Made by a program: the position numbers and the translations under genes. The notes beneath the pieces were generated by a model that did not search any database, was not told the origin of the DNA, and worked only from the letters and a program-made list of their open reading frames with translations. Positions 1 to 46,228 of a stretch of DNA of 64,000 nt are shown piece by piece. Within the stretch, counting starts at the first letter, position 1; every line of letters starts with the position of its first letter. The DNA comes from Geosiphon pyriformis uo1 (taxonomy: Eukaryota > Fungi > Glomeromycota), in the NCBI GenBank assembly GCA_016748015.1, contig JAAOMT010000009.1, positions 700,459 to 764,458 of the forward strand, read 5' to 3'.

Positions 1-155
1 ATTAGTATTTATAAAATTATTTTTATTTTTATTTTTTTTTATTTTTTAATGAATCAAATACTGTCTAGTACAATACATCAAATAATTGATCTAAACTAGG
101 TATGAATCATGTATTTTTTACATATGACCAGCCACTTAAGCCAATCAGAACAACA

Positions 156-11809: not shown

Positions 11810-13158
11810 TGTGTTAATAATTATGATTGGTTCTAGATTTTGTGAAATCTCATTTGGTTGAATTAATATTTATTGTACTTCTAGTTGTAAAATATTACTG
11901 ATAGATAATAATACTATATTATAATATGGTTTTAGTTAATTATCATGTATTGTTTTAACTAAGATTTTGTTGTTTTATCTCAATTTATATGTTCTATTTT
12001 TCGAAATTTCTTTAATATAAAATAGACTATTTCATTTAAAATCAAACTTTTTATTTCATTGTTTTTCTGTTTTGTTATGATATAAGAATACTTTGTCTTT
12101 AATTTTGAATTCAGGTGGTTTATCTGGTAATTGGTTATTATGTTGTTTTTTTTGTTTTTTTTATAACTTTTATATATTATTAGCTATTTTTTATCTTTTG
12201 TTCTCTAGAGTTTTTATTAAGTTATATGTTTTTCTTAGCAATGTTTCTTAAAAGTTGGCTTCTGTTATTAGTTTTATTAGATATATATTAATATCTATCT
12301 TAACTAGTAATGTTGTTGTTTTACTATAGATTAATTTAAATAGTATTGCTTATATAGTATCTTGCTTTATTGTTTAATAAGCAAATAATACTAATAATAT
12401 AAACAAATCCTATTTATTTTGGTTTTTTTGGCTGATTTTGGCTATTACTTTACATAATATTCTGTTGAACCTTTTAATTAAGCTATTTATTTGTAGATAA
12501 TATAGTAATAATAATAATCTTTTAACTTTAAATCTTTAACTTAATTCTGTCAATGTTTTGTTTACAAAATAAGTTTCTTGGTCTAATAATAATTCTTTTG
12601 GACATTTATGTTAACAAATCAAATTCTGGTATATGAATTTGGCTACAGATTCTGCATTTGCTCTTTGAATTGCTTTAGCTTTTGGCCATTTTGTAAGATA
12701 ATTTATAATTACTATTATGTATTAATTGCTTTTGCTGGTTATAGTTAGTGGTCTAACTAATTCAATTCCAATCTGATCAAATAGTTGTCCCACTTTAATT
12801 GGTTTTAGTAGCTTACTAAGTTTTGTTCCTTCTCTTTTTTTGATAAACATCACAATTTTGAACATATTAAATAATATTTGGATATATTGATGGCTAATAG
12901 TATCTTTTTCTAGTTTTTTCTATGGTTGCTTCTTTATGAAAGTATTCTGTAGTTGAATCTAAATATATGTTAAACAGTATTGTTTCTTTCTCTGCTTTTA
13001 TAATTACTTTGAGTAGTTGGTCTGAATCTTTTTTGTTTTTTTAATATAGTATATTTTAATTGTTGTTTTATGTAGTTTTGTTTTTTTTGAAATAATTTTT
13101 TCTTGAACTGTTAAGTATTAATATAATATTGAAATTGTTGATATTTTTGTGTATTCAT
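11810..13158 (-). pseudogene. Integrase ORF remnant of element A
   Basis: Starts MNTQKYQQF at ATG 13158; rve core (FDQIGIELVRPL, YLTKWPKAKAI); C-terminal QNLEPIIIIN. Confidence 0.8.
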
Positions 13159-13188
13159 TTTTTGTTATATTTTTGAGTTGAAATGTTT

Positions 13189-15770
13189 TTAGATTTGTCT
13201 TATGTGTAACAAATTGTTAACATTTTTTTTATAATGTATAGTATAATTAAATAGTAATAATTTTTTTTTTTGCATGACAATTGTCTTCAAATTTTTGTTT
13301 TTGGATTAATGTTAATTCTTTGTGATTAATGTATACATCAAATTTTTGACTCAAGTATTCATTTTATTTTATAACAACCCAATAGATAGTTAAATGTTTT
13401 AATGTTAAAGTTTTATAGTTTTTTTTAATTAGACTTAGACTTTAGCTAAAATATGCTACTAAATGTTTTTATTTATCAGATTTTTTTGTGATAGCACTGC
13501 TTTCAATGCTTAACTTAATACATCAATAGTAATAATAAATGGCTTGCTATAATCTAAATAGATTAATATTAGAACTTGAATAAGCTTTTTTTATAATATA
13601 TTAAAAGCTTTTTGTTGGTTTTCTGTTCATTTATATATAATGTGTTTTGCTTGGAGCTGGTAGAATGATTAAGCCAGTTTGGAGAAGTTTTAAATAAAGC
13701 AGCAATAGTATTTAGCAAATTTCAAAAATATTCTTAGTTCTGTTTAGTTTATTGATACTAAAAAGTTCTTAACTATTTTAATTTTGTCTGGATCTGTTTT
13801 GATGCCATTTTTGTTTATGATATATTCAAAACTTAAGTTCAGTTTTTTTAAAAAAGCATTTGATAACATTTAATTTTAATTTAGCTCTTTTTAATTTTTC
13901 AAATACTTGTTTAAGATAATAGAGATAATTATTAAATGTTTTAAAAAACATATTGGTATTGTTTAAGTAAACTACTACTGATTTTCATAGTAATTCCTTG
14001 TAGACAATTTCTATTAGTTGTTAAAAGATAACTGGAGCATTGATTAAGCCAAAAAACATAATATTGAATTCAAAGTTTTCTTCTTTGGTGATAAATGCTG
14101 TCTTTTTTTTGTCAGCTAAATTTATGACTACTTGTCAATAATTATTATTTAAGTTCAATGTTAAAAACCATTTTTTTTCTCTAAAAACATTAAATAATTC
14201 TTGGATCTGTAAAGTTGGATAGCTGTTTTTACAAGTAATACTGTTGAGTTTTCTGTAATCTACACAAAAATAAATCTTTTCATTCTTTTTTTGAATAAGT
14301 ACTATTAGTAATGACCATAAACTTATTAATAATTGAATTAATCTATTGTCTAATATATGGTTGATTTCTTGATAAATAATCTTATAACTAGTAGGTAGTA
14401 CTTAGTATGCTATTTGTTTGATTGAAATGGCATCTCCAGTTTTAATCTGGTGCTAAATAATATTAGTTTTGTCAAATTTATTTTCACTTGCAAAGATTTT
14501 GGTAAAATTGTTAAGTAATAACTTGAATTGTATATGTTGAAGTGAATTTAAGTTTTCTAAATTCATTTGCTCCAACTATTCTGGTTGTAACAAATAGTAT
14601 TCTTTATGTTTATAAATTGTTTATAATATAAGTTTACATATTTACAAAGTTGTAAAAAATCTGAAATGGTAATTAGTGTTTGGTTCTTAACTTTAGTATT
14701 TAAGTATCTAATAGTAATTTTGCTTAGTATTTCAATTGGATTTTCAATTGTATTGTGTATTAGAATTTTAATGTGTTTATAATTTTTGGCAAATATATAA
14801 AATTAGAGATAACAATCTCTTTTGATTTACAAATAATAGGTTTTATTTCAAAAATTTGGGGTTAATTTTTTATTTTCTTCTTTATAATTAATATATACTG
14901 GTTATATAATAAAATAGAAATTGATTAATTAATAAAAATAATTTCTTTCTAATTAATGGTTTTTTTTTCTATCATATTAATTGGTATTTTTATTCTACTC
15001 ATAAATCCAAATTTTTTTATCTTTTTTGTTGTGATTTTTAACTCTTTTTTTGTTTCTACTAATACTAACTAAGCTATTTTTACCAAAAGTAGAAATATTG
15101 TCTGTGTTATCTTTTTATTTGGTTTAATAATATATGTTTTTTCTAATTTATTTTGTAGTATTGTAATAATATTTTCTATATATTCTGTATTAATTATTTC
15201 TCTTCTAATATTATTTTTGCTAAACTAGATTTAAACACTAATTAGACTATTGTTGTTGCTGAAATTTCTAGTTTTATTTTCAAATTTATGCTGATACATA
15301 AATAAAGTTTCAATCTGATAGCAGTTTTTTTTGAATATCTAAAATTAAATCTTGTATTAATATTATGTACATATTTTGGCATGATACCTTTATTATTATT
15401 ACTGAACCATTTAAGTTTCTGCTTCTTTAAAAAATCTAAGAATGCAATATATTGTTTAAAATTGTAATTAGAATTTAAATTGTTATTATTGTAGTTGCTA
15501 TTGTGAATAATATTGGAATTATTGTTGTTATTATTATCAAAATCTAAATTAAAATTAATTTTTAATTCTAATTCCAAAGTACATTTACTGATTGGTTTTT
15601 TCTTTAGGAATTGAATAAATCATGCATGCTAATGAATTGTAAATAAGGTTACAATTATCACAAAATTTAAAATTGCTGGAAATTAGGCAATATTTATAGA
15701 GTTGAGTATTTAATTGTTCTAAATATTGCTCTTATTCTTCTTAAGTATAATATTAATGCTAATTTTCTGT
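13189..15770 (-). pseudogene. pol remnant of element A: end of Cys-rich domain, dUTPase (~14995-15425), RT, RNase H
   Basis: dUTPase KGIMPKYVH..INLKIKLEI..KKFGFMS; RT FCVDYRKLNSITCK; RNase H ending LLHIRQI*. Confidence 0.82.
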
Positions 15771-18625: not shown

Positions 18626-19857
18626 TCAGATCATTTATAATATTTTTTGAGTCATGTATCATAAACAGAATAATTATTGAAGATTGTTCTGGATTGATCT
18701 TGAAGAATATAAGAGCCATTGTTCAAAACTTTGTTGACTAAAAAGGGTTTTTTCTATCAGCTAGAGAATTTATCATTATAAATATTGTCTCTGTCTAAAC
18801 GGTATTCCAATACCAAGTCACCAATACTTAAAAAAAGTATTTTATAGGTTTTTTTTTTCTTAAGCTTTTCTTGAAACTGTTTTATCTTTTCAAAAGCAAT
18901 TATTTATGCTTCTACCAAGGAGTTAAGAATAATACCAAGTCTTCTTTGTAAAATGTCTTTATAATTCCCTATTGTGATTTTTTCAAAAGGTATTGTTTCA
19001 ATGTTAGTTTCTATTGGTAATATTGCTATTTATTCATAGAGCAGATAAAAAATTTCATAATTTGTTATGTTATGATTTACAGTTCTATAAGCAAACAAAG
19101 CTGAAAGCAGTACTTTGTCTCATAAGTTTGTTTTTTCACTGGTTTTGGCTAAAGTTTCACATAGTGTTCTATTGAAACATTCTACTAGACTATTTGTTTG
19201 AGAGTGATAAAGAGAAGAAAGTTTATGATATATTCTCATTTTTCTACAAAGTTCTTCAACTAGTGTACTGAAAAAAGCTCTTCCTTTATCAGATAAAAGT
19301 TCTTTGGAGCAGCCATGACAGCAGATAATATCTTCATAAATAAAATTGGCTATTGAGATTGCTGTTTGGTTTGGAGTGGCTCTTGCTTCTATCCACTTTG
19401 TAAGATAGTCAGTAGTTGTGATAATGTATCTGTTGTTATTAGGAATTATTGTTAAAAGTCTAACAACATCTATACCAATTCTGTCAAATAATTGACCAAC
19501 AAAGATTGAATAAATATCTTCTTTGTGATTGAGTTTGTCTTTTTTTTGGCAAATGTTACAAGGTAGGCCAATAATAATGAGCTGAAGTTTTCTGAATTGT
19601 TTTTGTTTTTTCAAAGTATTTAGTTAATGGGTCAATGTACATGTTGTATATTACAATTTTTTTTTCTTCAAATTTGATGACTTTCTGGGGCAGTTAGGAT
19701 CTTTTCTGTTTCTTTTATATAATTGGTTCTGGTGGATCAAATAGAAATTTGATTGTTTGCGCAAATGTTCTCTTTGTTGTTAAATGTATTTTGGCAGGTA
19801 TTGTCCTTTACCCAAAAATTCTATTAAGGCAGAGTAGTTGTCCAAGTCCATTATCAT
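18570..19857 (-). pseudogene. Integrase ORF of B1
   Basis: Starts MIMDLDNY; CNICQ zinc motif; FDRIGIDVV..TDYLTKWIEARA..LLSDKG..YHSQTNSLVECFNRTL core; SH3-like tail. Confidence 0.88.
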
Positions 19858-19914
19858 GTTTGTTTATAAGAGTATTATTAATAATTAAGTTGGTTTGATT
19901 AAGAGATTGTACTA

Positions 19915-22900
19915 TTATTGGATGGTAAGTCTAGAAAGAGCATTGGCATTTTGATGATTTGCTCCTTTGTGGTATTGAATATCATAGTCAAATTCATTCA
20001 AGTAAAGTATTCAGCAAGTTATTCATTTGTGTTCCAGCTTTTTTTTATTGCACAGCCAAACCAAGGCTTGATAATCTGTTACTATTAGGAATTTCACACC
20101 AAAAAGATATTAATCCTAGTAACTAGTAGCCCAAACTACTGCTAAATATTCTTGTTTAGTAACTAAATAGTTTTTTTCTGCTAGTGTAAAGGATCTATTG
20201 GCATATGCTATAACATGTTCTTTGCCATTTTCATTTTTCTGTAAAAGGACAGCACCAAGTCCATAGCCAGATACATCAGTGTAGAAAATAAAAGATTGGT
20301 CCAGATCAAGCTGCTTAAAAATTGGTTTAATAATAAGTTTTTTCTTCAGAATTTCAAAAGCTTTTTGTTGATGAGTGTTCTAGTGATAATTAACATTTTT
20401 CTTGAGTAGCTGATTAAGAGAAAAAGCAATTTTGAAGAAATCCTTGATAAATTTGCAATAGTAAAAAGCCAAACCAAGGAAAAAGTGTAGTTTAGAAACA
20501 TTCATTGATTGTTTAATGTTTTGAACTTTTTCAAATTTAGCTGGATTAGAGAAGATTCCATCTTTTGTGATAAAATGACCAAGGAACTAAATGGATTGGT
20601 GTCCAAAGAAAAATTTGATTGAGTTGATCTTAAGGCCAGCATTTTTGAGCAGATCAAAAACCTTCTGCAAATGTTCAAGGTGTTTATCCCAGATTTTTGA
20701 GTAGATTATTATGTTGTCTAAGTAGACCAGAACAAAGTTTTTTTTTACTGATTCAAATACTTTGTCCATTAGACATTAAAAGATAGAAGGGGCATTGGTA
20801 AGACCAAAAGACATGATTGTGAATTCATAGGTGCCATACTTGGTAATAAAGACAGTTTTTTTTCTGCTTTTTGGATCTATCTCTACTTGCCAAAATCTAT
20901 CAGTTAAATCAATGATTGAAAAGAAAGCAGCACCATTGAATTTATCTAGCATTGCATCAATTTTGAAAAGTAGGTACATGTTTCATATAGTGATGACATT
21001 TAATTGGCAGTAATCAACACAGAAATGTAGAGTTCCACTTTTCTTGGATATTACTACAACTGGGAAACCCCATTGACTCTTGGTTTCTTGTATGAATTCA
21101 AAATTTTTCATTCGGTTTATCTCTTTCTTAATGAACTTATTATTGTGTTAATTGGATTAATAAAACTTCAAATAGATGGAACAAGTTTCTTTTGTGGTGA
21201 TAATGTGTTGTATTAAATAGGTTCATCCAGAGGTATCACCTTCTTTTAAGATAACTGGGCCATTTCTAGCCAATAGATTTTTAATGTCCACTTTTCTTTT
21301 TTTAGGAGAAGGTTTTTTTTGTTCTACAATTAGTGATTGAATTTCAGGTGGTTCATTCTCAAAGGACTTCTGTATTTCTTTTAGTTTTTCTTTGGGTATC
21401 AAACTAATTGGCTCCCAATCTTTGTAATAGATCAGACAGGACTTGCATTTATCACTAGGAGAATACAAAGGTTTATTGCACCAACATCTGGCACAAGAAC
21501 TATATTACTAATAGCTGTATTTGGCTTTCTTGCCAGACTTTTTATCAAAAGTTTTACTTAGAATATCATAGTAAAACCAGCAGATTAGCTTGCCATTTAC
21601 CATGATTCTTTTTTTGTTAGCTTTAATATTGTCCAGTGACTTGCCATTACTGGTAAAGATAATATAGGCAAGTTTAGTAGTTTCTTTTTGTTTTTTTTGA
21701 TCTTCTTTATCATCACTCTCATTATCATCTGATTCATCTGATTGTTCATCTTCTTGATTCTGCTTGGGTACTGAAGAGATTGTTCAATGACAGCACTTAA
21801 CCACAATGGACTTTTTACCATATCTAATGGTTAGCTTACAAAGTTCATAATTAAGTAGCACTTTGGCTTTCTTGAGTCACTTATTGCCAACAATTATGGT
21901 GTACTCTTTTGCTTCAGATACTTCCATGTTAGTTTCAATACTAATATCATTGATGTAGACAGGAATAGCTTTGGCTATACTCAGGTCTTTCTTTTTGTCA
22001 CCATGTACATTGGTTATTGGTCAAGTGGAAAACTCATCAATTTTTCTGCCAATTGCTTCAAAAAAGTGTTTGGCAATTACACTAACAGATAATCTACTGT
22101 CTAAGATCAAATTAATAAAGTAACCAGCCACTTGGGCTTTGCAAATCAGAGGAATAACATTGTTGTTGTCAGTGAGTTCAGCTTGACAAGAACATTTATT
22201 GGTTTTTGGTGTCTTCTTTTTTAGAATCAATAACTTGTGAAAATTTTTTCTGAACTGTGGATGAGTTATTAGTTGGCCAAATTTAATGTGTGCTAGAGTT
22301 TCTATAAGATCTTTAACAACAGAATAAAGACCAGATTTTTGTATTATCTCTGGGAGTTCTAACTTTGGAGGATTTTTAAAAACTAGCCTTTGATGGCTTA
22401 TTGTTATCAGCAGTTAATGTGGATGCTTTTTTTGGATCTAGAACAAAATCAACTTTGGCTTTCTTCTTCTTTTTTGTTGATTCAGAAGTGTTGATTGCTA
22501 GTTTATCCATGTTATGATCATTATTAGTTAGGTTAAAAGTGTAAAAGAAGTTTTCTTTTAGTTGGCTTGTACTCTCATCCTTTGGAGATGTACCTACCAG
22601 TTTAAAGATTAATAAACAGTAACTTCAACTAGGAGATTTTTTTTAAAGAAATTGATGTTGGCATGATTGGGTTTTTAATTAGGAACATTGTTGTTAATAG
22701 TTCTGTTGGTTTGATTGTTATTGTTTCTAGGAACTGAAAAAGGCAATGGAGAATTGTTGTAATCTCTGGAAAAATGTCCAGTTAATCCACAATGATAGCA
22801 CACAAGTGGGTTACAATTTTGTTGTCTTTGATAAGAGAGTTGCTAGAGTTGATTAAAACATGGTTTAAATCTAGGTCTTTGTAGTTGCTGGTTGTCTTTA

Positions 22901-26629: not shown

Positions 26630-27603
26630 TGTTATTAGAGGTTTTTGGTCTCTTTTCTTGAATGTTGTTACTGTTTGTCTGTTGCTAATTTCACGTTTTC
26701 TGGAAGCAATTAAACCTCCAATAACTGAATTTATTTTCAAATTATCTCCTATAATTTGAACCACTAGATTTATGAGTAAAATGGCCAATTTTATGCCAGT
26801 TACTTTGTGTAGTTACATTGTAGTAAACATTAACTCTTTCCCAGGAATTGCTCATCTGGAAGCTCACTAAAATTGTGTAGTTACTTTGCTGTAAAAGTCA
26901 ACTCTTCTACAGGAATCTCGTTTGTAGACTACCCTAATGATTGTAATAAGAAAATAAAAAAATAAAATAAAAGAAGTATAAAAAAAATAGAATTTTGTCA
27001 AGAGAAACGTTTTTTATCCAAGCCTGGAGTCACTAACAGATTACTGAAATTGGTAGCTAATTAATTTCAAAATGTTAGTCGGGTTTTGAGGAATTTCAAG
27101 TGTAATAATCAAAGATTTGGTTTTTGAATATTTAATTTTTATTTAAATGTGTAAAAGATGATTTGTTTCAATTAAGATATCTAAAGTAAGATACTATGTT
27201 ATAATACCATGAGAAGATACATTTTCTTGAAGAGAAAAGCTCTTCTTTTATACAACTTGTTGTAATACTAGTCTTTAAACTTGTACTTTTCTCTTTGCTA
27301 TAATTTGGGTAAACTAAAAATACATTTTGGCAAACTACAAGTTATTTCACTGAACTATTGATTATTTCGGCCAATTTTCATTAATTTCAGCGAATTTTGA
27401 CTATGTTAAATGGTTTAGGGTATTGTGTAATTTGATCCTTTTAATTTCTATGATACAAATCAAATTATTAATTGAGTAATAATATTTGATAATTTGATTA
27501 AATAATAAGTGATAATCGAAATAATAATAATATATGCTAATTAATAATAAGAATTATAAGGGTAATTTTATGCTAATTAATAGCTAAAATTCTACTGGTA
27601 ATA
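26630..27603 (-). repeat. 3' LTR of C
   Basis: Direct repeat of 45255-46228; internal ~69-bp duplication at ~26805-26920. Confidence 0.95.
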
Positions 27604-27637: not shown

Positions 27638-28291
27638 CTAAGCACTATTTGTGATGTCAAGATAGTAGTCCAATATAATTGAAGTAATTTGGTCTGAAAA
27701 TTGTTGAAATTTCAGTTTTGTGAGCTTTCCAATGTATTGAATCTTCATTAGATAGAGTATTGGATTTTGTAGGACGTTTTCACAAGTGTTGAATAAATTA
27801 TAGAGTCTAAATGCTGCTCTAAGTTTGTAGTGAGTGTTTGTTGGTCCAGCTGCTGTCTTGAATTCATTGTGGATTTGTTTTTGTATGACTTCAGAAGTAA
27901 GATTTGTTGTTTCAAGTTCCAGTTTTTGTTCATAAAGTGTTTTTCTAATATGAAAATATTTATAGATAAGGGTATGTTCATTGTTTTGTTCATTAAGAAG
28001 TAGTGGAAGTTTTTGTTGGATTGTGACATTGGATAAAATGTTAATAGGAGCAATTAAAAGATTTTTTTTCAGTGCTTGCTTCAAAAGTTCTGGTAATTGA
28101 TTTTTAGAGTGACCTCTTGTTTTTTTTCTATAAGAGTGATAATTTTGAGAATTGTTTACTACTAATGTTGTGGTTTCTTTCTGAGTGTAATTAATTTAAC
28201 TTTTATTAATCGTTATGGATAAGTCAAGAAGTGTTTTTAAGGCTAACATTAATTTTTGGAATATTTGTTGAATATTTCGGGGAATAATCAT
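27638..28291 (-). pseudogene. ORF3 of C (unknown function, ~217 aa, one internal stop)
   Basis: MIIPRNIQQIFQKLMLALK...KLRAAFRLYNLFNTCENVLQNP..IGKLTKLKFQQF; similar along its length to D ORF3. Confidence 0.8.
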
Positions 28292-28429: not shown

Positions 28430-29816
28430 AATTAAGTGTTCAGGTTTGGCTGTTGTTCTATTATAATTATTGGTTCTAAATTTCAGGAAATATCTTTAGG
28501 ATTAATTAAAGGAGAATGTGTACCAATTTGTGAAATTAATGGTTCAGGATTATTTCTGGAATAATAGTGTTTCAGTTAATCTCCTTGTGCAACTTTTGCT
28601 AGTACTTTGTCATTAAGTCTTAACTTGTATAATCCATTGCCTAAAATTTCGTGAATATAAAATGGTCCATCCCATTTATGTTCAAATTTTCCACTTTATT
28701 GTTTTTCAGTCTTAGTTTTGTGTAAAAAAACTTTATTTCCAACTTTAAATTTGTTGGTAACTGGTAGCAGTTTGTTGTTATGTCTTTTTTTTTGTAGGGC
28801 TTGGGAGTGTTTAATATGAATGGCTGCTATGTGTCTCTTTCTTTTTAATGTACTAAGAAGAATGTAAGCTTTTTTTGGAGTGTTTCTTGAAAGTTTTTTT
28901 CATTAATTGGTTGTACTGGGTATGTTTTTACTGTGAAATTAATTGGTAATGTTGCTGTCTTTTCATAAGTAAGATCAAATGGTGTATGTTTTATAGTATC
29001 TTGTTTTAGTGTTCTGTATACTAATAACACTGATAAAATAAAGATATCCCATTCCTGCTCAAAATTTGTTGAAACTTTGGCTAAAAATTTACACAATGTT
29101 CTGTTAAAACATTCTACAAGTCTATTTGTTTAAGGGTAATAAGGGGATGATAGAAATCTTTTGACATTGAATCATTCACAAATTTCTTGTATCAAATTGT
29201 TCACAAAATGTGTTTCTTGATCAGATAAGAGTTTAATTAAGCATCCATGTCTACAAATAATGTCTTCATAAATGAAATTTGCTACTGATTTTGCATCTGC
29301 TCTTTGGATGGCTCTAGCTTCAGACCATTTGGTGAGATAATTTACTGCAACTGCAATATAATGATTTTCTTAGGTTGTGATAGGTAATGGTCTGACTAAA
29401 TCAATTTCAATTCTGTTGAAAGGTTGTTCAACTTTGATTGGATTTAAAGGTTCTGTGTGGCGAGTTCCTTTTCTTCTTTGACAGCTATTACAAAATTCTA
29501 TATATTGTCAAATGTTTTTTTGCATGTAAGACCAAAAGTAATGTTCAAGAGTTTTTTGAATTGTTCCATCTCTTTCCAAGTGTGCTGAAGAAGGATCTGT
29601 GTGCATGTTGTATAGAATTGTTTCTTTTTTATTTTCCTGTATTAATCTGAGTAATTAATTTGAGTTTTTGTGATTTTTGTAATAGATTTTGTTATGGTGT
29701 ATGAAATATTGTTTGAATTGGTGTTGTAATCGATGTTTTTCACTTAAAGACCAATTTTCTAGCATGGTAAGAGTTTCCATATAGTTTTTAATGTTGTTGT
29801 AATTTCTGAGATCCAT
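28430..29816 (-). pseudogene. Integrase ORF of C
   Basis: Starts MDLRNYNNIKNY at ATG 29816; rve core; KWDGPFYIHEILGNGLYKL SH3-like tail; LEPIIIIE. Confidence 0.88.
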
Positions 29817-29873
29817 TATTGTTTGGTTATTTTGTTGGTAGGTTGGTAAGTTGTGGTGGATTTGTTGTTGGTA

Positions 29874-32778
29874 TTAATCTTGTCTCATTCTTAAGAGGCT
29901 ATCAATATTGGTGTGTAGTTTTTCTGGTTTGTGGTATACAATATATTTGTAGTCTGCTAGAAAGTCATTCTATCAAGACTGTTTGGCACTTTGTTTGGTT
30001 TTCTTTTTATTGAGTTATTTAAAACTAATATTGTTAGTTATAATGTTAAATTCTTTTTCATTCTTCAGGTATTGTTGAAAATGTTTAATAGTCCAAATAA
30101 CTGCAGCAGCTTCTAATTTAGTTGAGTTATATTTGAGTTCTGTTGGTTTGAGTGTCCTACTGATATAGACAATGACTTGTTCTTGGCCATTTTTATCTAA
30201 TTGTGATAAGATGGCACCAAAAGCTATGTGTGATGTATTGGTGGTTAGTTGGAACCATTTGTTGAAGTCTGAGTAAACAAGAACTGAAGCTGTTGTTAAT
30301 TTTGTTTTGAAAGTTTTAAAAGCTTTTTGTTGTTTTTCAGTCTATTGATATGGCATGTTTTTGTTGATAAGATAATTAAGTGGTTTGGCAATTTTCAAGA
30401 ATTCTTTTATGAATTTTCAATAGTAAGAGGCTAATTCTACAAATCCTCATAGCTTGATAGTATTTTTGGAAGTTTGAAAGTTTTTGACAACACTGATTGT
30501 TCCTGAATTTGGTTTGACTCCATTTTTATTAACTATGTGTCCAAGAAAGATTAAGCTTGTTTTTCTAAAATGACATTTTTCAATGTTTAACTTCAATTCT
30601 GTTTTCCATAATCATTGAAAAAATTTTTGCAAATAGATAAGATGGGCTTTAAAGCTTGGTGAGTATATATTAGTGTCATCAAGATAGACAACTACTGATT
30701 GCTATAAAAGTCCTTCATATATAATATCCATAAGTTATTAGAATGTTGCTGGTGTATTACAAAGTCCAAAAGACATAAAATTGAACTCATAGTTTCCTTT
30801 TTGAGTGGTAAATGCTGTTTTAGGTTGATCTTTTGGGTTCATTTCGACTTGCCAGTATTCACTTTCCAAGTCTAAAGTTGAGAAAAACTTGGCTTTGCCT
30901 AAAGCATCTAGCATGTCATCAATTCTTGAAAGAGGATAGGCATCTCTAATTGTTATACTGTTTAGTTGGTAATAGTCAACACAAAATCTGATTTTTCTAT
31001 TTTTCTTTTTGATAAGAATTACTGGTAAGACCCATAGACTTTTTGATAGTTGAATCAATTCATTATTGAGCATTCTTTGAACTTCTTCCCTAATGAATTG
31101 GTGGCTAGCAGGTGGCACTTGATAAGCTTGTTAACATTTTGGTGAAGCATCTTCTGTATGGATCTAATGTTAAACAATATTAGTTTTTCTAAGATTATTG
31201 TTGTCTTTTGCAAATATGTTAGCGAATTCAGCTATTAGCTGTTTCAATTGTCTTTGTTGTTAAGATTCTAAGAGACCTATGTTGATTCAAAAGAGTTTTT
31301 CTTCTAAAAAGTAGTAGTTTTCAGTAGTAAGGATAATGTTTAGATTTGGAAGTAAGGTATGTCCTATAATTTCGATGAAATTAGAAACAATTTGAGGGTT
31401 TTTATCATGGAAGATATTGCTATGTATGATTCCAATTTCTAATTTATTCAATAAGACAATAGAGTAATTATTGGAGTTGTAGAATGTAACTTGAAATTTT
31501 TTCATTCTTTTGAGAATATAAACATTTGGGATTGAGATTTTATGTTTTAAACAGATTTGTTCATTGGATTCAAAGATTTGTTGGGTAGTGGTGAGTTCTG
31601 AGCAAGTGTAAATTTCGTAATATTCTCCAAAAGGTAAAATAATAATTGGTTGGGGAAGTTGAAGAATCTGGTGCAATTTATTTTGTGTATTAAGAGCTAT
31701 GTTTACTGGAACTGTAAATCGTTCAGTTGAACTAAAACCTTGAGTTTCTTTTTCACTTTTTTCCAATTGTTCTCTGTTTTTAACTGATTGTAAACCCGAA
31801 ATGTTGATTAAGGGTAGGTAAATTGCTTAAGCAATCTTTTCAGCATGTTTAATTCTGAATGGTTTTTTAGTTTCATTTTGTAGTATGACAGTGATGTCTC
31901 CAGTATATCCTACATCTATAACTCTTCCTCTGATGTTAATTCCTTTGCTTGCCAATAATGATTGGAAAGCAATTTGTACTATTGCTCCTAATGGTATTTC
32001 AAAAACAATTCTAAGGTTGATTTTGGTTAAGAATTTTGGTTAAAGAACCAAAGTGTTTTTGCCAGAATATCTGAGGTTATATCTTGTATCAATTTCATAG
32101 ACTTTTTTTGGTTTTATTCTTTGTTTATTGTTGTCAAAGTATTTGAGTTGTATAGTAGGCTGGTTTTTAGTAAGATAAATTGGTGTTGTTATAATTTCTT
32201 CTTTTGTTTCTAGTTTCCCAAATTCAATTTTCTTCTGGTCATTTTTACTGGACAGAGAAATACTAAGAGCATAGCATTCTGAATACCATTTGTCATTACA
32301 AAACATGATGTATTCTTTACACAATTAAATATTTATTTGCTCTAATTTTTGAATTTAAGCTTCTTGGATTGGGTATGTGTGGCTTGCAATTTGGTAGTAT
32401 GTCTCTATTTCATCTTTATAGTTGAATTCAGCTAATTTTATTGTGTATTCAATGTACTCAGCTTTCTTTATTTGTTAGACATTTTCTTGTGTGGCTCCAT
32501 TAATTAAAGCTATTGCTAAATCAAAAATCATTTCAGCATTATGAGAATAGTGGTAAAGTTTGTTAAAAGCACTATTGTATATTATATCAAAAGATGTTCT
32601 TTTTTTAACTTTTTTCGAAATTGATAAGACATATTGACAGGTTTGGTCACATACTTCCCCTCTTATTGCAACATCAATCCAGTTGCATTCTTCTGGTAGT
32701 ATATCTCCACATGTAAGACAAGAAGTGTTGTCCTATTTTCCACTTCTTTTGAAATATTCAAATCATTTTTTATGGCAT
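29874..32778 (-). pseudogene. C pol 3' part: Cys-rich domain, dUTPase (~31726-32150), dUTPase-like domain, RT, RNase H
   Basis: GINIRGRVIDVGYTGDITVILQN, EKIA*, QGFSST; RT IRFCVDYYQLN..YLDD; ends LLRMRQD*. Confidence 0.9.
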
Positions 32779-33653
32779 TGTTATGGGATGGTTTTCTTGT
32801 TATATTTAATTGCTGATATCCCGTTTTAATTGCAATCAGTCTTTCGTGAATTCCTCAATTCTATTTGTGTGATAATGTCACTGTTATACTGAAGACTTTC
32901 TTTTAATATTGCAATGTAAGTTATTCTTCAATTCCTGATTGTTGTGTGTGTTTATGTACTTCTTCTCAGAGGCTAAACTGAAATCTACCCACTGTCTGGG
33001 GTCTTTTCTGAGGCTATCCTTGCAATTGCCTGATGTGTTTTTCTAATCTAGAAACACAGAATGTTAATGGTCTTTAGTGCTTTTTCTAATTCTTACAATA
33101 AAGCTTTTATCAATTAGTAACAATGTGAATAATCTTGATCAAGGATTATTCTTCCAAGAGATTCAGTTGATGAATGATAGTTTCATTTAATAAATAATAC
33201 AAGTAAGTTTCTTAATACTTTGGGTTGTGATAATTCAGTTTTAAATATTTTTTTTTATTTCTTTTTGATTTAAAGATTTCTTGGGATATTTAATTTGAAA
33301 GTATGATTTAAAGTGGAGTTTGTTGAATAAAATTGGATCTATTGCTTGATAAGTTATGATTTTTATTACTTGATTGTTTTTTTCCCAATATTAAAACTAC
33401 TATATATATACATGTTTGTAGTTCTACGAGAAAACACATTGTAATACTTTTTTTTTGATATTTCAATCTGGTATTTGCTGCTATCACCAGTTGGTGTTGA
33501 CTGCTATTGTGAACTGGTGCTTGCCACTATTGCGAGATGGTGTTTGCTACTATGTTAATTATTATTTTTCTAAGATTATTACTGTGCTATATTATGATTG
33601 AATAGTTTGTATTATTTTTATGATTCTTTTTGCTAAATTCTTAAACCATAACA
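32779..33653 (-). repeat. 3' LTR of D
   Basis: Direct repeat of 41623-42497; four ~23-bp U3 units at ~33468-33555. Confidence 0.96.
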
Positions 33654-33668
33654 ATATCTCCTCTTTTC
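33654..33668 (-). promoter_or_regulatory. Polypurine tract of D
   Basis: rc gaaaagaggagatat abuts the LTR. Confidence 0.8.
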
Positions 33669-34335
33669 AAAATTGAGCTCCGTCAAAATTGAAGTTAATT
33701 TCTTCATTAAATTCTAAATTACTATAGTGGTTCAATACTGTGTTATTAATTTGTTGTTGTAATTCTTAAAATTGCGAATTGGTAAGTCATCCAATACTGT
33801 TAATTGTTATTATGTTCATGGTTGGGTTCAACAATAATTTGTAACAGTTTTCAAATGCTTTGAAAATTCTGTAAACTGTTTTTGAATGGAATGTAGTGTT
33901 GGTTTTTCCAATGAAAGGTTCTAATAGTTGGATAGTTGTTTTGTCAAACACTCTAGTTGAGTCTTTTGAGTATAATGTTTGTATGTTTAAGTGTTTTCCT
34001 AGTTGATAATAACAGTAATTAATTGGAAATTTCGTTTTCAAGTTGCTAAATGTGTCTGGTGTTAATTCACTTATTTCTATTTCTTCCATTATTAATGTAT
34101 TGCCCAATGCTATCTCTAATTTTTTAATAACTTTGCTAATAAATTTGTTGTTATATTTGGCAATATTATATGGTTCGAAATTATGTTCTTTTCTTGTTTT
34201 TGGATTTTCTATTGTTCTTTTTATGTATGTTATCTTGGAGCTATTAACTGTGATTTCCAGATCGGATTTTAATTGTTGTAAGCTTTCAACTAATTGTTGA
34301 GTTATATTGTTGATGTTTTCTAGAATAAGTATCAT
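33667..34335 (-). pseudogene. ORF3 of D (unknown function, ~222 aa, two late stops)
   Basis: ORF 33787-34335 continues in frame as LTNSQF*ELQQQINNTVLNHY; homologous to C, A and E ORF3. Confidence 0.82.
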
Positions 34336-34419: not shown

Positions 34420-35799
34420 TTATCTTTTTGAATAATGTTCAATTAAAACTATTGGTTCTAAATCTTGTGGAATTTGTTCTGGTAGAATTAAAGGTAATTG
34501 TGTTCCAATTCTGGGTGTTTTTGTTGTTATTACTGGTTTACTGTAATAGAATTTCAGCTGGTTACCATGTGCTGCTTTTCTTAATATTTTATCATTTAGT
34601 CTTAGCTTGTATGCTCTATTTCCAAGTATTTTGTGAATATAAAATGGTCTATCCCACTTGTGATCAAATTTTCCATTCCACTGTTTTTCCATTTTTGTAT
34701 GATGCAACAATACTTTATCTCCAATTTTGTAGTTAATTATATTATCTGGTAACTGGTTATCATGTCTCACTTTTTGTTGTTCTTGTGATTGTTCAATATT
34801 TTGTGCTGCTTTTCTTCTTTTGTTTTCTAAAGTTCCCATTAATTTGTATGTTCTTCTAAGTAGTGTTTCCTAGAATGTTGCTTCCATGATAGTGTCACTT
34901 AGATAAGTTGGGATAGTAAGTTCAACTGGTAATGTGGCTTTTCTTTCATAAACTAGTTCAAACAGTGTGAATTGTATAGTATCTTGTTTTACTGTTCTAT
35001 ATGCTAGTAGTACTGTTGGTATGAACAAATCCCATTCTTTTTCATGTTCATTACTAATTTTTGCCAGTGATTCACATAATGTGCAATTAAATCTTTCAAC
35101 TAATTCATTTGTTTGAGGGTGGTATGGTGATGACAGTGGTCGCTTGATTTCAAATTTTTGGCTAAGTTCTTTTAAGGTGCTGTTTACAAAGTGTGTGCCT
35201 TGATCTGATAGCAATTCTTGTGGACATCTATGTTGGCAAATTAAGTCTTCATGTATGAATTGAGCTACGGAAATAGCATCAGCTGTTTTAATAGCTCTAG
35301 CTTCTGGCCATTTGGTGAGATAGTCTATGACTACTGCAATATAATGGTTGTTTCTTGTTGTTATTGATAAGGATCCAACTAAATCAATTCCAATTCTGTC
35401 AAATGGCTGTCCCATTTTTATTGGTCTTAATAATTCCATTGTTTTTGCTCCTCCTCTTCATTGGCATAGGTCACAATTTCTTATGTATTGGATTATGTCT
35501 GAACTCATTTTTGGCCAATAGTAACGGCTAGTTGCACATTGAATGGTTGCTGTTTTTCCAAAGTGGCCTGAATGAATATTTAAGTGCATGTTAAATAAGA
35601 TAGTTTCTTTTTTATCTGTAGTTATAATTCTTAATGGATTATCTGGATTTTGTCAATTCCAGTAATAAAGTATGTAATTTTGGATGAAATAGTGTTTTGC
35701 TAATTTTTGGAGCTTAATTAGCTCTTTTACTGGCATTTCTTTGTCTATTTGTAGTGTTTCCAAGTATTGGCTGAGGTTTTTGTAAAGGTGGTTGTTCAT
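34420..35799 (-). pseudogene. Integrase ORF of D (zinc-binding domain, rve core, SH3-like tail; no chromodomain)
   Basis: ATG 35799 MNNHLYKNLSQY; HSGH..CDLC; IGID..LLSDQGTHF..PYHPQTNELVERFN; in a different frame from RT-RNase H. Confidence 0.92.
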
Positions 35800-35828
35800 T
35801 GTTGTTGTGGTGGGTGGGTTGGTGATTT

Positions 35829-38800
35829 TTATGTGTATCTTATTCTTGACAAACAGTTAGCATTAGCATTTTTGGTATCTTCTTTGTATTTGATAATATA
35901 ATTGTATGGTGCTAACATTTGTGACCATCTGGCATATTTTCTTTTTAATGCTTTCTTGTTATTTAACCAGATCAGACCTCTATAATCTGTTATAATATTA
36001 AAGAGTTGGTACCGTAAATATGTGTCAAAGTAAACACAACTCCAGACTACTGCTAAGCATTCAAGTTCATATGCTGCATAGTTTTGTTCTGCCATACTGA
36101 GACTTCTGCTGGCATAAGCGATTACACGTTCTCTTCTATTATCATCTTTTTGTGACAGAATGGCTCCAAGTCCAGTTCCAGAGGCATCTGTGACCAAAAT
36201 GAATTTCTTGTTGAAATTCAGATAGATTATTATTGGTAATTTAATGAGCTTTCATCTAAGGTACTCAAAAGCTTTTTGTTGTGTTTCAGTTTATTCAAAC
36301 TTTACATTTTTAGATAGTAAGTAATTAAGGGGTTTGGTGATGTTTGAAAAGTTTTCTACAAAGTGGTGGTAGTAAGATGCAAGTCTTAAAAAGCTTCTAA
36401 CTTCTGAAATGTTTCAAGGTACTGGAAAATTTTTCACTTTGTCTATTTTTGATGGATCTGGTTTTATTCCATTTTTTCCAACTACATGTCTTAAAAATGC
36501 TAGCTCATTTTTCCCAAAGAAACATTTTTTTAGATTTAGTTTAAGTCCAGCATGTCTCAATCTCTCAAAAACTTGTTGTAAATGTTGGAGATGATCCGTG
36601 AATTTTGACGAGAAAACATTTGTATTATCCAAGTAGACAACAACGGATTGCTACAGGATTCTGAAGTAAATTACGTCCATTAGTCTTTGAAATGTCACGG
36701 GAGTGTTTGTTAATCCAAATGGCATTACATTGAACTCATAATTGCCATTTTGTGTTGTGAATGCTGTTTTATGCCTGTCCTTTGGGTCCATTTCTACTTG
36801 TCAGTACCCACTGGTCAAGTTCAGTATAGAAAACCATTTTGCTCCTCCAAAAACGTCGAAGATTTTTTCAATTAACGGTATTGGGTATGAGTCTTTGGTT
36901 GTTTTGCTGTTTAGTTTGCGATAGTTGATGCAAAATCTAATTTTTCTGTTCTTTTTCCTTACTAAAACAACTGGTGAGGACCATGGGCTCATTGATGATT
37001 GTATTATTCCTTTTTCCAACATGCTTTGGATTTCTTCTCTGATAAAATTATGTTTCATTAGTGAGACATGGTAAGCATGTTGTTTTTTAGGTCTGGCATC
37101 TCCAGTGGGGATTTGGTGTTGAACCAAGTTGGTTCTTTCAAATTCGCTATTTTATGAAAATATATCAGAGTATTTTAAAATTAATGCTTTTAATTGTTGC
37201 TTTTGGTCAGGATCCATTGTTCCAATGTTTAATTTGGCCAATTCTTCTGGCGTAAATTGATAGCATTCTAACAGTTGTTGCCAATTTATTGAAGTGAGTT
37301 CACAGTAGAGGGTGATTTCTGGGAAATTTAGAATTTCTTGTGGTGTTGACGCATTTTCTAGCTCTGTTCTGAGGTATCCAATAATGGTATCTTCCAGAAT
37401 GTAGACGGGTTCTTCTGTGGTGTTTGCGATAGGAATTTTTATCCATTGAGCTTTATCAGCTGGAATAAAAAGGTTAGTAAGTCCTATAAGAAACTGTTGG
37501 CAAGTTTTTGGGTAAGGCTCAAATATTAGGTCTTTTTTTTTAATTGTCCTTTTTATTCTTATTTCTGATTTTCCATATGGTAGGAGTGTGATGGACTGCT
37601 TATTTTTAATTACTTTACCTTTTTCCTCTATTGTTTCAGCGAAATTTGCTTCAATTCTTTTTCTTGTCAATCCGAAACCAAAAGTTCTTCTTGTTGTTTG
37701 TGACAATTCTTCATGATTTTCCACTGGCATAAATTTCCCAATTTTTACCAATGGTAGAAAAATTGCTTATGCAATTTTTTCCTTAGATTCAATGGTATAA
37801 GGCTTTTCTGAATTGTTCTGTAGCAAAACCATCAAATTTCCAGTGTATCTGGAGTCAATTACTCCTCCTTGAATGCTTATTTTTTTTTTCATGAGACTTG
37901 ATCGTGACGCTATTTGAACCATTATTCCTGGCAGAATTTCAACTGCTATTTTTAGGTCGATTTTGGTGATGCTTCTGAGTGGTAACATTGTGGATTGGTT
38001 TTCTGGATAACATAGATCGAATTCGGCATCGGTTGGATGGGCTCTTTCAGGTATTATTCCTAAGTGCCCATTGTCGAAGTATCGGATGTCGGTCACCTGT
38101 TCTAGGTCAGTATAGGCTACAAATTTTTCTGACTCAGGACCGTCAGGTGAGTCTTGTTGATTTATTAATTGATTTTGAGACTGCTGATTCTCAATTTCCA
38201 TTTTTTTTTCTAAGCCCCTTTCATCTTGACACTCTTCACAGCACTGATTTTGGCATGGGATGAGACAGTTTTCGCAGAGATAAGTGTTGATTTGGGTGAA
38301 GTATTGTTCTTGCTCTTGTCGAGTGGGGCATAGTTGTTGGTAGTAGTCCTGGAATTCGTCCACTGGATCAAACATGTTGTAGCTGGTGACTTCGTCAGCT
38401 ACTTCGGCTGACTTTTTCCAATGTCGTATTTCTTCAGCAGTTCCTTCTCTTATTTTGGCTTGTGCAGTGTTGTACAACTTGTCCTTATTGTGTGAGTAGT
38501 GCTGTAGTCTTTTTAATGCTCTGTTGAATGCTGCTTCGAATAGCATTCTTCCTCTTACCCAGTCACAGATGAGGATTGTGTATTGGCAAGTTGTGTCACA
38601 CATTCTTCCTCTGTCTGATATGTCATTCCAGTCGCACCCTCTTGGTAACGGTTCTCCACAAGCAAGGCACAGTTCCTCGTCCCATTTTCCATGTCTTTCT
38701 GGGTAACTGTATTTTTTTTTGTTACAATGGTTACAATAGTAATGGGTGGAGTTTCTTGGGTCTTTGTTTGGTGCACTGCACGCAGTCATAGACGAGAGTT

Positions 38801-41540
38801 TTTTCTTGCAAACTGAGCATTCTAGCTTTGGTCTGCGTCACTGGTGGTTTCTTTGTGAACTTACCTGGTTTCATTCGGATCTTTCTTCGCTGGTCCACAT
38901 TGGTACGGCTGGTAGTCTTGTTCTTTGGTCATCAGCCCAAGAAAACTGATAGGTTTCGATGGCTGGTAGTGCTAGATTTTTCTCAAATTTGAAGGTAGGT
39001 TTTTGGTTGGCACTGGGTTTTTGGAAGTAGTCACAGATGGCTGGAATTTTGGCCTGGTGGCTATTATAATTGATCAGAAGCTCTTGAGTAGTCCAGTCTA
39101 GAGTGGCATTGGCTTTTGTTAGCCAGTCATTCCCTACTAACGCTTAATATTGTGTAGCATCCATTACTAATATTTTTGTAGGTATTACTATGCCATTAAT
39201 TTCGAAAGGGAATGAGTCGATTTCACCATGAGACAGCTTTGTACTTCCATTGGCTGTTATGATTTGGGATGTCGCAGCACAATCAACTTTGAAACCCAGT
39301 TGGTTTACTAGTTGAAGCGTTATGATGCTTCCAGCGGATCTGCTGTCTAAGATAAGTTTGATTGGAGTATTGTTTACAGTGGCTTCCGTATACATAGCAG
39401 TGATTGGGCATTTTTCGTCCAATGCTGCTCCACTAAACATAGCCTCATTTTCCTCTAATTCAAAAGAAAAAATAGCTGCAAGGCTGCTATCTTCAGTGGC
39501 AACTGTTGGTGGTATTGTCTGGTTCAATTTGTTGGAAGAATTCTTGGTTTTGTTTATGTTTCTACTATCATTATTTCTGATGATTAGATTTTCTGGTATA
39601 TTAAGGTAAGTTTGTTGATAATTTTGGTAGTTTGAATTGGTTTGCTGATTGGTTTTGGCACAGTTTGGATTCCTCTGGACCAACGCGTTCTGGTTCTACA
39701 TGGGCTGATTTCAGGCCTTGGGATGCCAATTTGGGTTGGCTATCATGGGCTGTTGCTGGTAAGCTCCTTGATTTTAATACGTGGTGGAATATTGGTGTGG
39801 TATTGGCGTGTACTGGTTTCTAAGCATTTGGGGTGGTGTGTAGTAATTATTTTCATGTGCTTCTTGCATCATTCGCATTCGACATTGACTAATCAAATGT
39901 CCTATGCATTTGCAAAAATGGCAGGTGCGCGTTTTTGTTCTGAATTTCTGGCGTGATGAGCGATTATTTTGACTGTCACTAACTTCCTGGCTGCATCTTT
40001 GGAGTGGTTGGTATGTATTTCTTCTCGGATCCAGGATGAGGTAACTTTCTATTTTCTTAGAGAATTCCTCCCCTAATTGTATTACTCTTTTCTCTAATGT
40101 TTCTGTCTTATTTTCCTTCATTATCATGTTAACTATTTAACTATGGTTAGCTTTTTTCTCAGCTGATTCAAGGGCTCTGGCAAGTGTAATGGCTTCTAGT
40201 AAGGAATTAGGGTGGGCAGGGCGTACTCTTTCTAAAATGCTGCTTTTTAATTCTCTAATAAACTGATTTAAAACCTAAGGATCAGTGTAGTATCCTTGTT
40301 TAATCACTTCAATCTGATGGCAAATTCGATTGAATCGAGCAAGGTATTGGGTAACAGTTTCACTGGTATTTTGCTTGATAGTATTGAATTCATTTTGTAG
40401 TTAGATTATGGCGTTTGGGTCGCTAAAATACTCCAGGAGTGCATTTTTAAATTTGGTGAAGCTCGTGGATTTTGTTTCCAGGCTTTGATACCACAAGTCG
40501 GCTGTGCCTTTCAGGAAGAAAGGTAATATTTGAATTGCTCTTTGGTTGTTCCAGTTATTTGTCTGGATGGCTTTTTGTGCTTCTCTGAGCCATGTGTGCA
40601 TGTCCATTTCTTCTTTCTCTCCTGAGAAATCTGTTAGTCTTGTAATGTATGGTGTGGTCATTTCATTGCCATTTTTTGCTGGTGGGCTTATTGGTCTAAG
40701 AGGAGGTGAGATGATATTTCTTTAAGCATTCCTAAAGATGGCTTCCCTTATATCCAGTTCTTTTTCTTGATCATGAGTTTTTTGGTTTCTGGATTGGCTG
40801 CTTGTTTCAGTGACTGGTCTTGTGATTGTTTTTTCGCTGGTCTTTTTTTCAGATTCCGATTCAGACTCCTCTTCACAGTTTTCAAACCCCATTCTAAATT
40901 TTGGCTGAAAAAGAGGGTTTTGGAATAGTGATAAATATCCTCCTGTAATTGGTATGTCTCCCCAGTTATGTTGTTTAATTTTATCAGTATAATTAGAAGT
41001 TCTTGGCATTTGTGGAGTTGATGTTAATGATGATGCAGCTTCTAATAGAATTTGTATCTTATTTTCTGGTGAAAAATGGTATGATTTATCTTCTGGTGAA
41101 TAAATACGTTGTTTCTTTATTGATTAAGTGACAGTTTTCTTTGGTGTTTGAGCTAGTGTTCCTAGTTTTTGCTGGTTACTTTTCCGATTAGTTTTTAAAT
41201 TTTTTTTGGTTTTGTTGATGCATTTTTTAGTGTTTCCTGTGGATATTGGAAAATTTTCGTTGGCGTATTGCTCAATTTCTTGATGGATTTTGACAATAGT
41301 TGCGGCTATTACTGTTACTTCTTTTGTAGTGTATTGTGATAATTCTCTATACAATCCAAGTTTTGCATCATGTGGTTCTTCTTCCTTTCCTATATGATAA
41401 TTTATTCTGGCGTTGATATAATAAGTGAGGGCAGATTCTGCTGGACAACACCCTTCTGATAATCCAAGATTACTTTGATTTTGTGTGTAAATAGCACAGC
41501 AGAATTCAAGAACAGTAAGATTAGGGGTTTTTGTCATCAC
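35829..41540 (-). pseudogene. Single-frame gag-protease-Cys domain-dUTPase-RT-RNase H polyprotein of D
   Basis: ORF pieces starting at 41540, 41009, 40661, 40127, 39683, 38789, 37751, 37127, 36632 and 36197 share one frame. Knuckle CHFCKCIGHLISQC, protease LILDSRSAGS, RT YLDN, RNase H TDASGTGLGAIL. Confidence 0.93.
37665..38087 (-). pseudogene. dut: dUTPase domain within D pol
   Basis: All five trimeric dUTPase motifs recognisable: DAEFDL, IASRSS, GGVIDSRYTG, KIA*(Q), RRTFGFGLT. Confidence 0.92.
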
Positions 41541-41604
41541 TTTTGTCTCTTCCTTTTTAGCAATGAATTATTGCTAATTATTATTTCTTTTTTGATTTTC
41601 TTTT

Positions 41605-41622: not shown

Positions 41623-42497
41623 TGTTACGGGATGGTTTTCTTGTTATATTTAATTGCTGATATCCCATTTTAATTACAATCAGTCTTTCGTGAGTTCCTC
41701 AATTCTATTTGTGTGATAATATTACTGTTATACTGAAGGCTTTCTTTTAATGTTGTGATATAAGTTATTTTTCAATTCCTGATTGTTGTGTGTGTTTATG
41801 TACTCCTTCTCAGAGGCTAAACTGAAATCTACCCACTGTCTGGGGTCTTTTCTGAGGCTATCCTTGCAATTGCCTGATGTGTTTCTCTAATCTAGAAACA
41901 CAGAATGTTAATGGTCTTTAGCGCTTTTTCTAATTCTTACAATAAAGCTTTTATCAATTAGTAACAACGTGAATAATCTTGATCAAGGATTATTCTTCCA
42001 AAAGATTCAGTTGATGAATGATAGTTTCATTCAATAAATAATACAAGTAAGTTTCTTAATACTCTGGGTTGTGATAATTCAGTTTTAAATATTCTTTTTT
42101 ATTTCTTTTTAATTTAAAGATTTCTTGGGATATTTAATTTGAAAGTATGATTTAAAGTGGAGTTTGTTGAATAAAATTGGATCTATTGCTTGATAAGTTA
42201 TGATTTTTATTACTTGATTGTTTTTTTCCTAATATTAAAACTACTGTATATATACATGTTTGTAGTTCTACGAGAAAACACATTGTAATATTTTCTTTTT
42301 GATATTTCAACCTGGTGTTTGCTGCTATCACCAGTTGGTGTTGGCTGCTATTGTAAACTGGTGCTTGCCACTATTACAAGATGGTGTTTGCTACTATGTT
42401 AATCATTACCTTTCTAAGATTATTACTGCGCTATATTATGATTGAATAGTTTGTATTATTTTTATGATTCTTTTTGCTAAATTCTTAAACCATAACA
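41623..42497 (-). repeat. 5' LTR of D
   Basis: tgttacgg...cataaca; direct repeat of 32779-33653. Confidence 0.96.
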
Positions 42498-42501
42498 GCA
42501 T

Positions 42502-45254: not shown

Positions 45255-46228
45255 TATTACCAGAGGTTTTTGGTCTCTTTTTTTGAATGTTGTTACTGTT
45301 TGTCTGTTGCTAATTTTACGTTTTCTGAAAGCAATTAAATCTTCAATAACTGAATTTATTTTCAAATTATCTCCTATAATTTGAACTACTGGACTTATGA
45401 ATGGAATGGCCAATTCTATACCAGTTACTTTGTGTAGTTACATTGTAGTAAACATCAACTTTTTCCCAAAAATTGCTCATCTAAAAGCTTACTAAAATTG
45501 TGTAGTTACTTTGCTGTAAAAGTCAACTCTTTTACAGGAATCTTGTCTGTAGGCTACCCTAATGATTGTAATAAGAAAATAAAAGAAAAAAATAAAAGAA
45601 GTATAAAAAAAATAAAATTTTGTCAAGAGAAACGTTTTTTATCCAGGCCTGAAATCATTAACAGATTACTGAAATTGGTAGCTAATTAATTTCAAAATGT
45701 TAGTCGAGTTTTGGGGAATTTTAAGTGTAATAATCAAAGATTTGGTTTTTGAATATTTAATTTTTATTTAAATGTGTAAAAGATGATTTGTTTCAATTAA
45801 GATATCTAAAGTAAGATACTATATTATAATACCATAAGAAGATACATTTTTTTAAAGAGAGAAGCTCTTCTTTTATATAACTTGTTGTAGTACTAGTCTT
45901 TGAACTTGCACTTTTCTCTTTGTTACAATTTGGGTGAACTAAAGATACATTTTGGCAAACTACAAGTTATTTCACTGAACTATTAATTATTTCGGCCAAT
46001 TTTCATTAATTTAGGCGAATTTTGACTATGTTAAATGGTTCAGGGTATTGTGTAATTTAATCATCTTAATTTCTATAGTACAAATCGGATTATTAATTGA
46101 GTAATAATATTTGATAATTTAATTAAATAATAAGTGATAATCAAAATGATAATAATATATGCTAATTAATAATAAGAATTATAAGAGTAATTTTATGCTA
46201 ATTAATAGCTAAAATTCTATTGGTAACA
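45255..46228 (-). repeat. 5' LTR of C
   Basis: Direct repeat of 26630-27603. Confidence 0.95.

Follow-up and report, generated by a model that had tools for sequence, protein, structure and literature searches.

Integrase encoded as a gene of its own behind the Gag-Pol stop codon: sequence evidence from a Ty3/Gypsy lineage of arbuscular mycorrhizal fungi

As listed in Table 1, the window, i.e. the whole stretch of 64,000 nucleotides of Geosiphon pyriformis DNA that was analyzed, contains the elements D, C, B1 and A. Element D is complete, LTR-bounded and 9.7 kb long and sits inserted within element C, between the protease and the dUTPase of the latter. Its LTRs are 96% identical across 875 nt, and the termini (TG..CA) together with the 4-bp target duplication ATGC agree with a Ty3/Gypsy-type LTR element. 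Pfam analysis unveiled a Ty3-type capsid followed by protease, dUTPase, RT, RNase H and rve, corresponding to the order Gag-PR-RT-RH-IN, and every domain except the integrase lies in one common frame in both D and C (in C across the insertion of D), which bears out an earlier note on this DNA that had described Gag through RNase H as free of frameshifts in these two elements. No chromodomain match was obtained in P0001, P0013 and P0017 and PF00385 was found in none of 120 integrase relatives, so that the elements do not qualify as chromoviruses. Between protease and dUTPase of D, a Cys-rich stretch without Pfam match was observed at 38100-38840 (minus strand). At 49412-51474 (plus strand) the 3' part of a C-type element, with its LTR and ORF3, recurs as a decayed inverted copy, and the regions 54000-61000 (plus strand) and 1-7800 (minus strand) carry related decayed elements which appear LINE-like by eye, with endonuclease-, RT- and RNase H-like motifs; their frames, read through stops as X, gave no Pfam match. 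For the genome of G. pyriformis an LTR content of 41.2% is given in the available excerpt of PMC11952901.

Table 1. Positions of the features of the window elements and of the hairpin found in related loci.
Feature	Position	Strand	Remarks
D 5' LTR	41623..42497	-	starts TG; target duplication ATGC at 42498-42501
D ORF1, Gag-PR-Cys-rich-dUTPase-RT-RNase H	35829..41567	-	Pfam matches; single frame; 18 decay stops; start uncertain
D ORF1 terminator TAA	35829..35831	-	4 residues past LSR
D spacer	35800..35828	-	29 nt; ATG-free, unstructured, frame-shifting
D integrase ORF	34420..35799	-	459 codons; zinc-binding H2C2, rve core, SH3-like end; 3 decay stops
D ORF3	33667..34335	-	small helical protein family; decayed close to the end; among the profile's own sequences
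D 3' LTR	32779..33653	-	ends CA; target duplication ATGC at 32775-32778
C 5' LTR	45262..46226	-	93.5% identical to 26637-27601
C junction	29817..29876	-	TAA 29876-29874 and 57-nt spacer, in frame, open
C integrase ORF	28432..29816	-	decayed; one frameshift near 28860
C ORF3, longest open part	27638..28195	-	
C 3' LTR	26637..27601	-	pairs with the LTR at 45262-46226
B1 junction	19852..19917	-	TAA TAG; further stops in spacer; Met at 19857, homologous Met at 19851
B1 integrase, aligned part	18715..19857	-	decayed
A junction	13159..13191	-	TAA and 30-nt in-frame spacer
A integrase, aligned part	11924..13158	-	heavily decayed
Hairpin	L003:4462-4503		directly 5' of the integrase ATG; also in L006, L010, L012, L013, L015, L019, L023, L025

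In all four elements the RT-RNase H frame terminates at the identical codon, a TAA four residues past the LSR-equivalent (35831-35829 in D, 29876-29874 in C, 19917-19915 in B1 and 13191-13189 in A), exactly as had been reported. Decay has put 18 stops into the 1912 codons of ORF1 of D; that the four elements nevertheless share the codon at which they terminate goes beyond chance. The integrase ATGs at 35799, 29816, 19857 and 13158 are present, and the spacers preceding them hold as counted before (29, 57, 57 and 30 nt), except that the homologous start of B1 is the second Met at 19851, by which its spacer grows to 63 nt. It was likewise verified that the integrase of D lies in a frame different from ORF1, that the B1 spacer contains three additional in-frame stops and that the spacers of A, C and D, having zero G, offer no GT donor. 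Freedom from G, which the earlier note had singled out, is nothing special in these elements, with 13 G-free runs of at least 29 nt on the coding strand of D and five of at least 40 nt in C.

Among proteins, the 120 best similar-length matches are 41-50% identical to the D integrase. In 105 of them the homologous first position is a Met, after which only D, N or E occurs; the remaining 15 begin later. A Geosiphon pyriformis protein matches the start of the D integrase with 91% identity over 19% of its length. Long proteins, which the similar-length search had left out, were searched separately with the D integrase and yielded 84 matches; five of these reach at least 41% identity, all of them NCBI gene models (Cetraspora, Rhizophagus clarus or Geosiphon), and the others stay at or below 38%. 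An RT tree was calculated from 111 of the 120 best long matches, nine with too short an alignment being left out; like the integrase tree it is quick, based on a plain model and unrooted. Therein D belongs to a clade of 75 rows (SH-aLRT 91) together with 71 proteins without integrase and three R. clarus gene models, i.e. 71 of the 74 proteins are integrase-free Gag-Pol, and 33 of the 37 rows outside the clade are fused to integrase. The nearest fused relatives are Gypsy-type Pol proteins of up to ~50% identity, in a tree built without named reference lineages or outgroups. With respect to LSR, 31 of the 71 Gag-Pol proteins end within 6 residues and six within 7-30 residues, 33 carry a longer tail and one is truncated; an R. 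irregularis Gag-Pol of 1742 residues stops two residues past LSR. The longer tails (P0225 and 32 others, likewise ORF1 of L003) extend ~60-400 residues past RNase H, frequently bearing a Cys/His-rich motif close to their end, and the tail of P0225 has no Pfam match. Intact copies are present in R. irregularis, where 96 members make up a Gag-Pol cluster and 42 an integrase cluster.

At the DNA level, the integrase clade (42 rows, SH-aLRT 95) takes in 34 of 80 metagenome loci, the elements of the window and four proteins from R. irregularis. All 24 loci scored as fused lie outside this clade, and the 45 labelled rows of the integrase tree contain two changes between the fused and the split state; as the trees are unrooted, the direction of the change is deduced from fusion being the rule elsewhere. 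Seventeen junctions were readable, namely those of 16 clade loci and of L030, located outside the clade on a long branch; the remaining clade loci have too little upstream DNA or were unscored. RT-RH is seen upstream in 11 of the 17, L011 retains the LSR tail only and five have a long C-terminal tail frame. In each of these readable non-fused junctions the ATG adjoins the stop, at spacer lengths between -8 and 727 nt and in all three frames (three in frame, six at +1 and eight at +2). The start context, scored for the 17 loci and the four window elements, shows a purine at -3 in 19 of 21 and G at +4 in 16 of 21. Start and stop overlap in the form ATGnnTAA between RH and IN of L022 (ATGGATAA) and as ATGA between IN and ORF3 of L012. 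The spacers range from A-rich to T-rich among the loci, those of the window being A/C-rich and unstructured. The final 75 nt of RH showed no conserved GT donor, and the short junctions no conserved splice donor or acceptor.

Several loci deviate in further details. Long spacers occur at L008:2490-2854, at L020:6706-7432 and upstream of the integrase in L024, L045 and L061; that of L008 contains a 67-codon ORF, and in the group of L024 a small conserved ORF enters the integrase start, possibly as a further cistron. The Gag and Pol frames of L016 differ (2898-2916) and one in-frame stop separates them in L020 (3357-3361), so that both loci may also recode at Gag/Pol. In L075, L078 and L079 integrase precedes RT within one frame, an order which we take to be Gmr1-like. 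Viral contigs contributed three weak loci only.

In nine loci of one sub-clade, which includes R. irregularis P0064, a two-stem hairpin of ~40 nt, interrupted by a purine-rich bulge of 11 nt and by a single bulged A, ends within ~15 nt of the integrase ATG. For its 13 pairs 93% of the cells are paired and nine pairs have double changes; none of 500 shuffles scored as high and slid windows gave 23-45%, controls which are tilted in favour of the hairpin because its structure was derived from the same nine related sequences. Wherever the upstream frame is visible (six of nine loci), it has a long tail past RNase H. An Rfam analysis of 14 loci gave no match near the gathering score, and across 81 sources the hairpin model recovered only its nine training loci, the best other hit (E 0.17) lying in the window, from which the hairpin is absent.

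ORF3, mostly 120-180 residues long, follows the integrase in 11 loci as well as in C and D. As all of these were in the profile, its independent matches are two gene models and the inverted C-type copy. No ORF3 was found 3' of the integrase in L017, L018, L022, L026 and L028, with 0.6-1.5 kb of downstream DNA each; consequently, the split does not depend on ORF3. The design of Gag-PR-(dUT)-RT-RH, IN and ORF3 with separate initiation, which had been proposed for the window elements, is supported in its core, and ORF3 is a conserved family but not clade-wide. An all-helical bundle is confidently predicted for ORF3 (pLDDT 92). Comparison with Pfam revealed no shared family and comparison with BFVD no match; the best VIA score (Z 5.0) lay inside the background, and the Atlas gave nothing for the ORF3 of D and leads only for that of L002 (0.91-0.94, fewer than 170 shared features).

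With respect to translation, reinitiation on one polycistronic RNA fits these sequences best, and we assign it a probability of about 0.6. Ribosomes would finish Gag-Pol, scan the short ATG-free spacer and restart at the integrase ATG of the same genomic RNA. The 13 spacers of 5-190 nt, i.e. omitting the overlap of L022 and three long spacers, contain one ATG in 1084 nt compared to 10.5 expected (as few in none of 1000 dinucleotide shuffles). Within the final 180 nt of ORF1, 1.8-2.7 ATG occur per 100 nt; thus the onset of the ATG-poor zone coincides with the stop, for short-tail and long-tail types alike. Together with the overlaps and the strong start context this corresponds to the needs of a ribosome resuming after termination, and the varying frame offsets exclude a single readthrough or frameshift rule. 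The three long spacers (278, 365 and 727 nt) contain 22 ATGs, which makes simple scanning impossible there; with these included the depletion amounts to 23 versus 31.7 expected (P 0.023). Ten of 11 IN/ORF3 spacers are ATG-free and the pooled count, which leaves out in-frame ATGs by the choice of start, is 6 versus 9.3 expected (P 0.086, non-significant).

ORF3 would probably be made by the same restart process. A low restart efficiency would put integrase below Gag and RT, which come 1:1 from one frame, and free integrase may bind its own template RNA, in analogy to foamy virus Pol, or catch cDNA outside the particle. In the hairpin sub-clade the structure directly 5' of the ATG is a likely cis-acting aid; in this position it could also hinder scanning. 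TURBS, the rRNA-complementary motif UGGGA upstream of the stop, did not occur within the 160 nt preceding LSR in any of 12 sequences, and a fungal motif could differ. An excess of synonymous conservation before the stop was not observed either in a weak test (0.52 at six late sites versus 0.59 at 39 earlier ones). According to the accessible part of PMC10275272, reinitiation after long ORFs occurs in SART1 as well as in two viruses of fungi, CHV1 and HvV190S, and TURBS reinitiation declines past about 30 nt; the stop-start distance here is at most ~20-30 nt in five of 21 junctions (-8, 5, 29, 30 and 30 nt) and longer in 16. In the literature examined, part of which was accessible as excerpts, no report of reinitiation in an LTR element was found. 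It is doubtful that the lineage represents a polycistronic LTR retroelement with a reinitiation system of its own, in which either ORF3 would serve as a TAV-like factor or ribosomes would be tethered by the hairpin, a fungal ribosome would restart after up to ~1,900 codons and free integrase would join its substrate with no need to be fused to Gag or released by the protease.

The main rival is a subgenomic mRNA for the integrase, arising from an internal promoter near the stop or by splicing from the 5' LTR, which we regard as possible but unlikely. It accounts better for the long spacers, whose ATGs need a non-scanning route, and a strong start context behind an ATG-poor leader would suit a 5' UTR equally well; furthermore, an AG is located 5-13 nt upstream of the ATG in all five scored hairpin loci, and foamy viruses own an internal promoter (available excerpt of PMC12789967). 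However, the 5' end of such an RNA would have to follow the stop codon whether ORF1 has a short or a long tail, an acceptor adjoining the ATG gives no need for an ATG-free spacer upstream, and in short-spacer elements the nearest AG lies 17-114 nt upstream, often within RH. L006 carries the hairpin without AG, and the start/stop overlaps suggest coupling. Internal ribosome entry at an A-rich unstructured spacer or at the hairpin, for which upstream translation would not be needed, appears improbable: the unstructured A/C-rich window spacers and the hairpin kept by covariation would suit it, but spacers of 5 and -8 nt leave no room, and the composition swings from A-rich to T-rich.

That a fused RT-RH-IN protein is still produced, be it via readthrough, via a frameshift or via splicing over the junction, is very improbable. 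In A, C and L005 the junction is open and in frame, and five gene models of Rhizophagus clarus and Cetraspora link RH with IN; these models, however, use three different joints and lack the end of RNase H including the D of DxxSR, as is to be expected of predicted joins across a stop. Readthrough, raised in the earlier note as a way around the stop, fails as a general route, since 14 of the 17 junctions change frame, to either of the two offsets, and L005 alone among them is in frame and open. The RH end without a conserved donor argues against splicing, and a fused protein would make the invariant Met1 of the integrase superfluous. Mutational decay of CAA to TAA in dead copies is a practically negligible explanation, already refuted by the intact relatives. 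The window elements are indeed decayed, with stops at Gln and Trp codons, as the caveat on TAA arising from CAA had implied; the window is depleted in CpG (observed/expected at most 0.5 in 31 of 32 2-kb bins) and not in CpA. When 823 contig records of one DNA run, possibly from the source sample, were aligned to D, 29 junction sites varied at 5% or more, several of them adjoining the stop, without indels, but no variant of the stop or the integrase ATG reached 5%. None of the 40 best-supported variants listed for the C junction (2402 records) affects the stop, but at position 29814 roughly half of the aligned depth has ATA in place of the integrase ATG, indicating decay or a sub-family. Copies with CAA and an open linker into integrase, previously named as the outcome that would speak against the split, did not appear: the D family keeps TAA and intact relatives keep the split.

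Judged from these sequences, a large Ty3/Gypsy lineage of arbuscular mycorrhizal fungi carries integrase as its own gene after the Gag-Pol stop. We are almost certain that this layout is real, conserved and apparently undescribed within Ty3/Gypsy-type elements; no published description of an RH stop with separate integrase was found in full-text literature searches, with subscription papers and Repbase being beyond reach. A lineage abundant in Glomeromycota dispenses with the Gag-Pol fusion of integrase, which opens testable questions on how fungal ribosomes resume translation behind very long frames and on the need for integrase inside the particle. For annotation it means that gene callers invent joins across the junction and that intact elements can score as broken.

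By the textbook rule, the integrase of an LTR element is cut out of the Gag-Pol polyprotein, and the fusion sets both its dose and its packaging. The elements resemble Ty3/Gypsy members such as Ty3 and Tf1 in their TG..CA LTRs, 4-bp duplication, Ty3-type capsid and PR-RT-RH-IN order, but differ in that the integrase lies outside Pol, contrary to the usual trait of a Pol-encoded integrase, and in having no chromodomain match, a dUTPase in some and an additional ORF3. In the accessible parts of PMC3248453 and PMC12440569 IN is a domain of Pol. Troyka, defined by CG..CG ends and a 3-bp duplication (excerpt of PMC12440569), was ruled out for D by its TG..CA ends and 4 bp, and lokiretroviruses, considered as a precedent for a separate integrase, proved wrong according to the available text of PMC7947760.

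Caulimoviruses are similar in that their reverse-transcribed RNA carries successive ORFs, set apart by short spacers or overlapping at start and stop, and a separate last ORF; they are not known to use an integrase. Their polycistronic RNA is translated by TAV-activated reinitiation (excerpt of PMC5902531), whereas ORF3 has no TAV-like match and is missing in some split elements. With caliciviruses, influenza B, CHV1, HvV190S and SART1 the elements share overlapping or close stops and starts, and SART1 has a downstream RNA structure (PMC10275272, accessible part); in contrast to the calicivirus type, no TURBS motif was seen here and most spacers exceed 30 nt.

Ginger elements likewise possess a stand-alone Gypsy-like integrase ORF. 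They are DNA transposons with terminal inverted repeats and are not known to carry an RT, whereas the present integrases reside inside LTR elements with Gag and RT; membership of the window elements was ruled out by their LTRs and RT. The idea of the split as a step toward Ginger is unsupported, with TG..CA LTRs and a 4-bp duplication in D and trees containing no Ginger sequences. Since rve is taken as a Ginger marker in the available portion of PMC5751038, separate Gypsy integrases have possibly been counted as Ginger, and rve-only ORFs may be miscounted in this way. Foamy viruses, finally, share with the present elements an enzyme gene unfused to Gag that needs another packaging route (PMC12789967, excerpt), but there the entire Pol is separate, whereas here RT stays on Gag and only the integrase is free.
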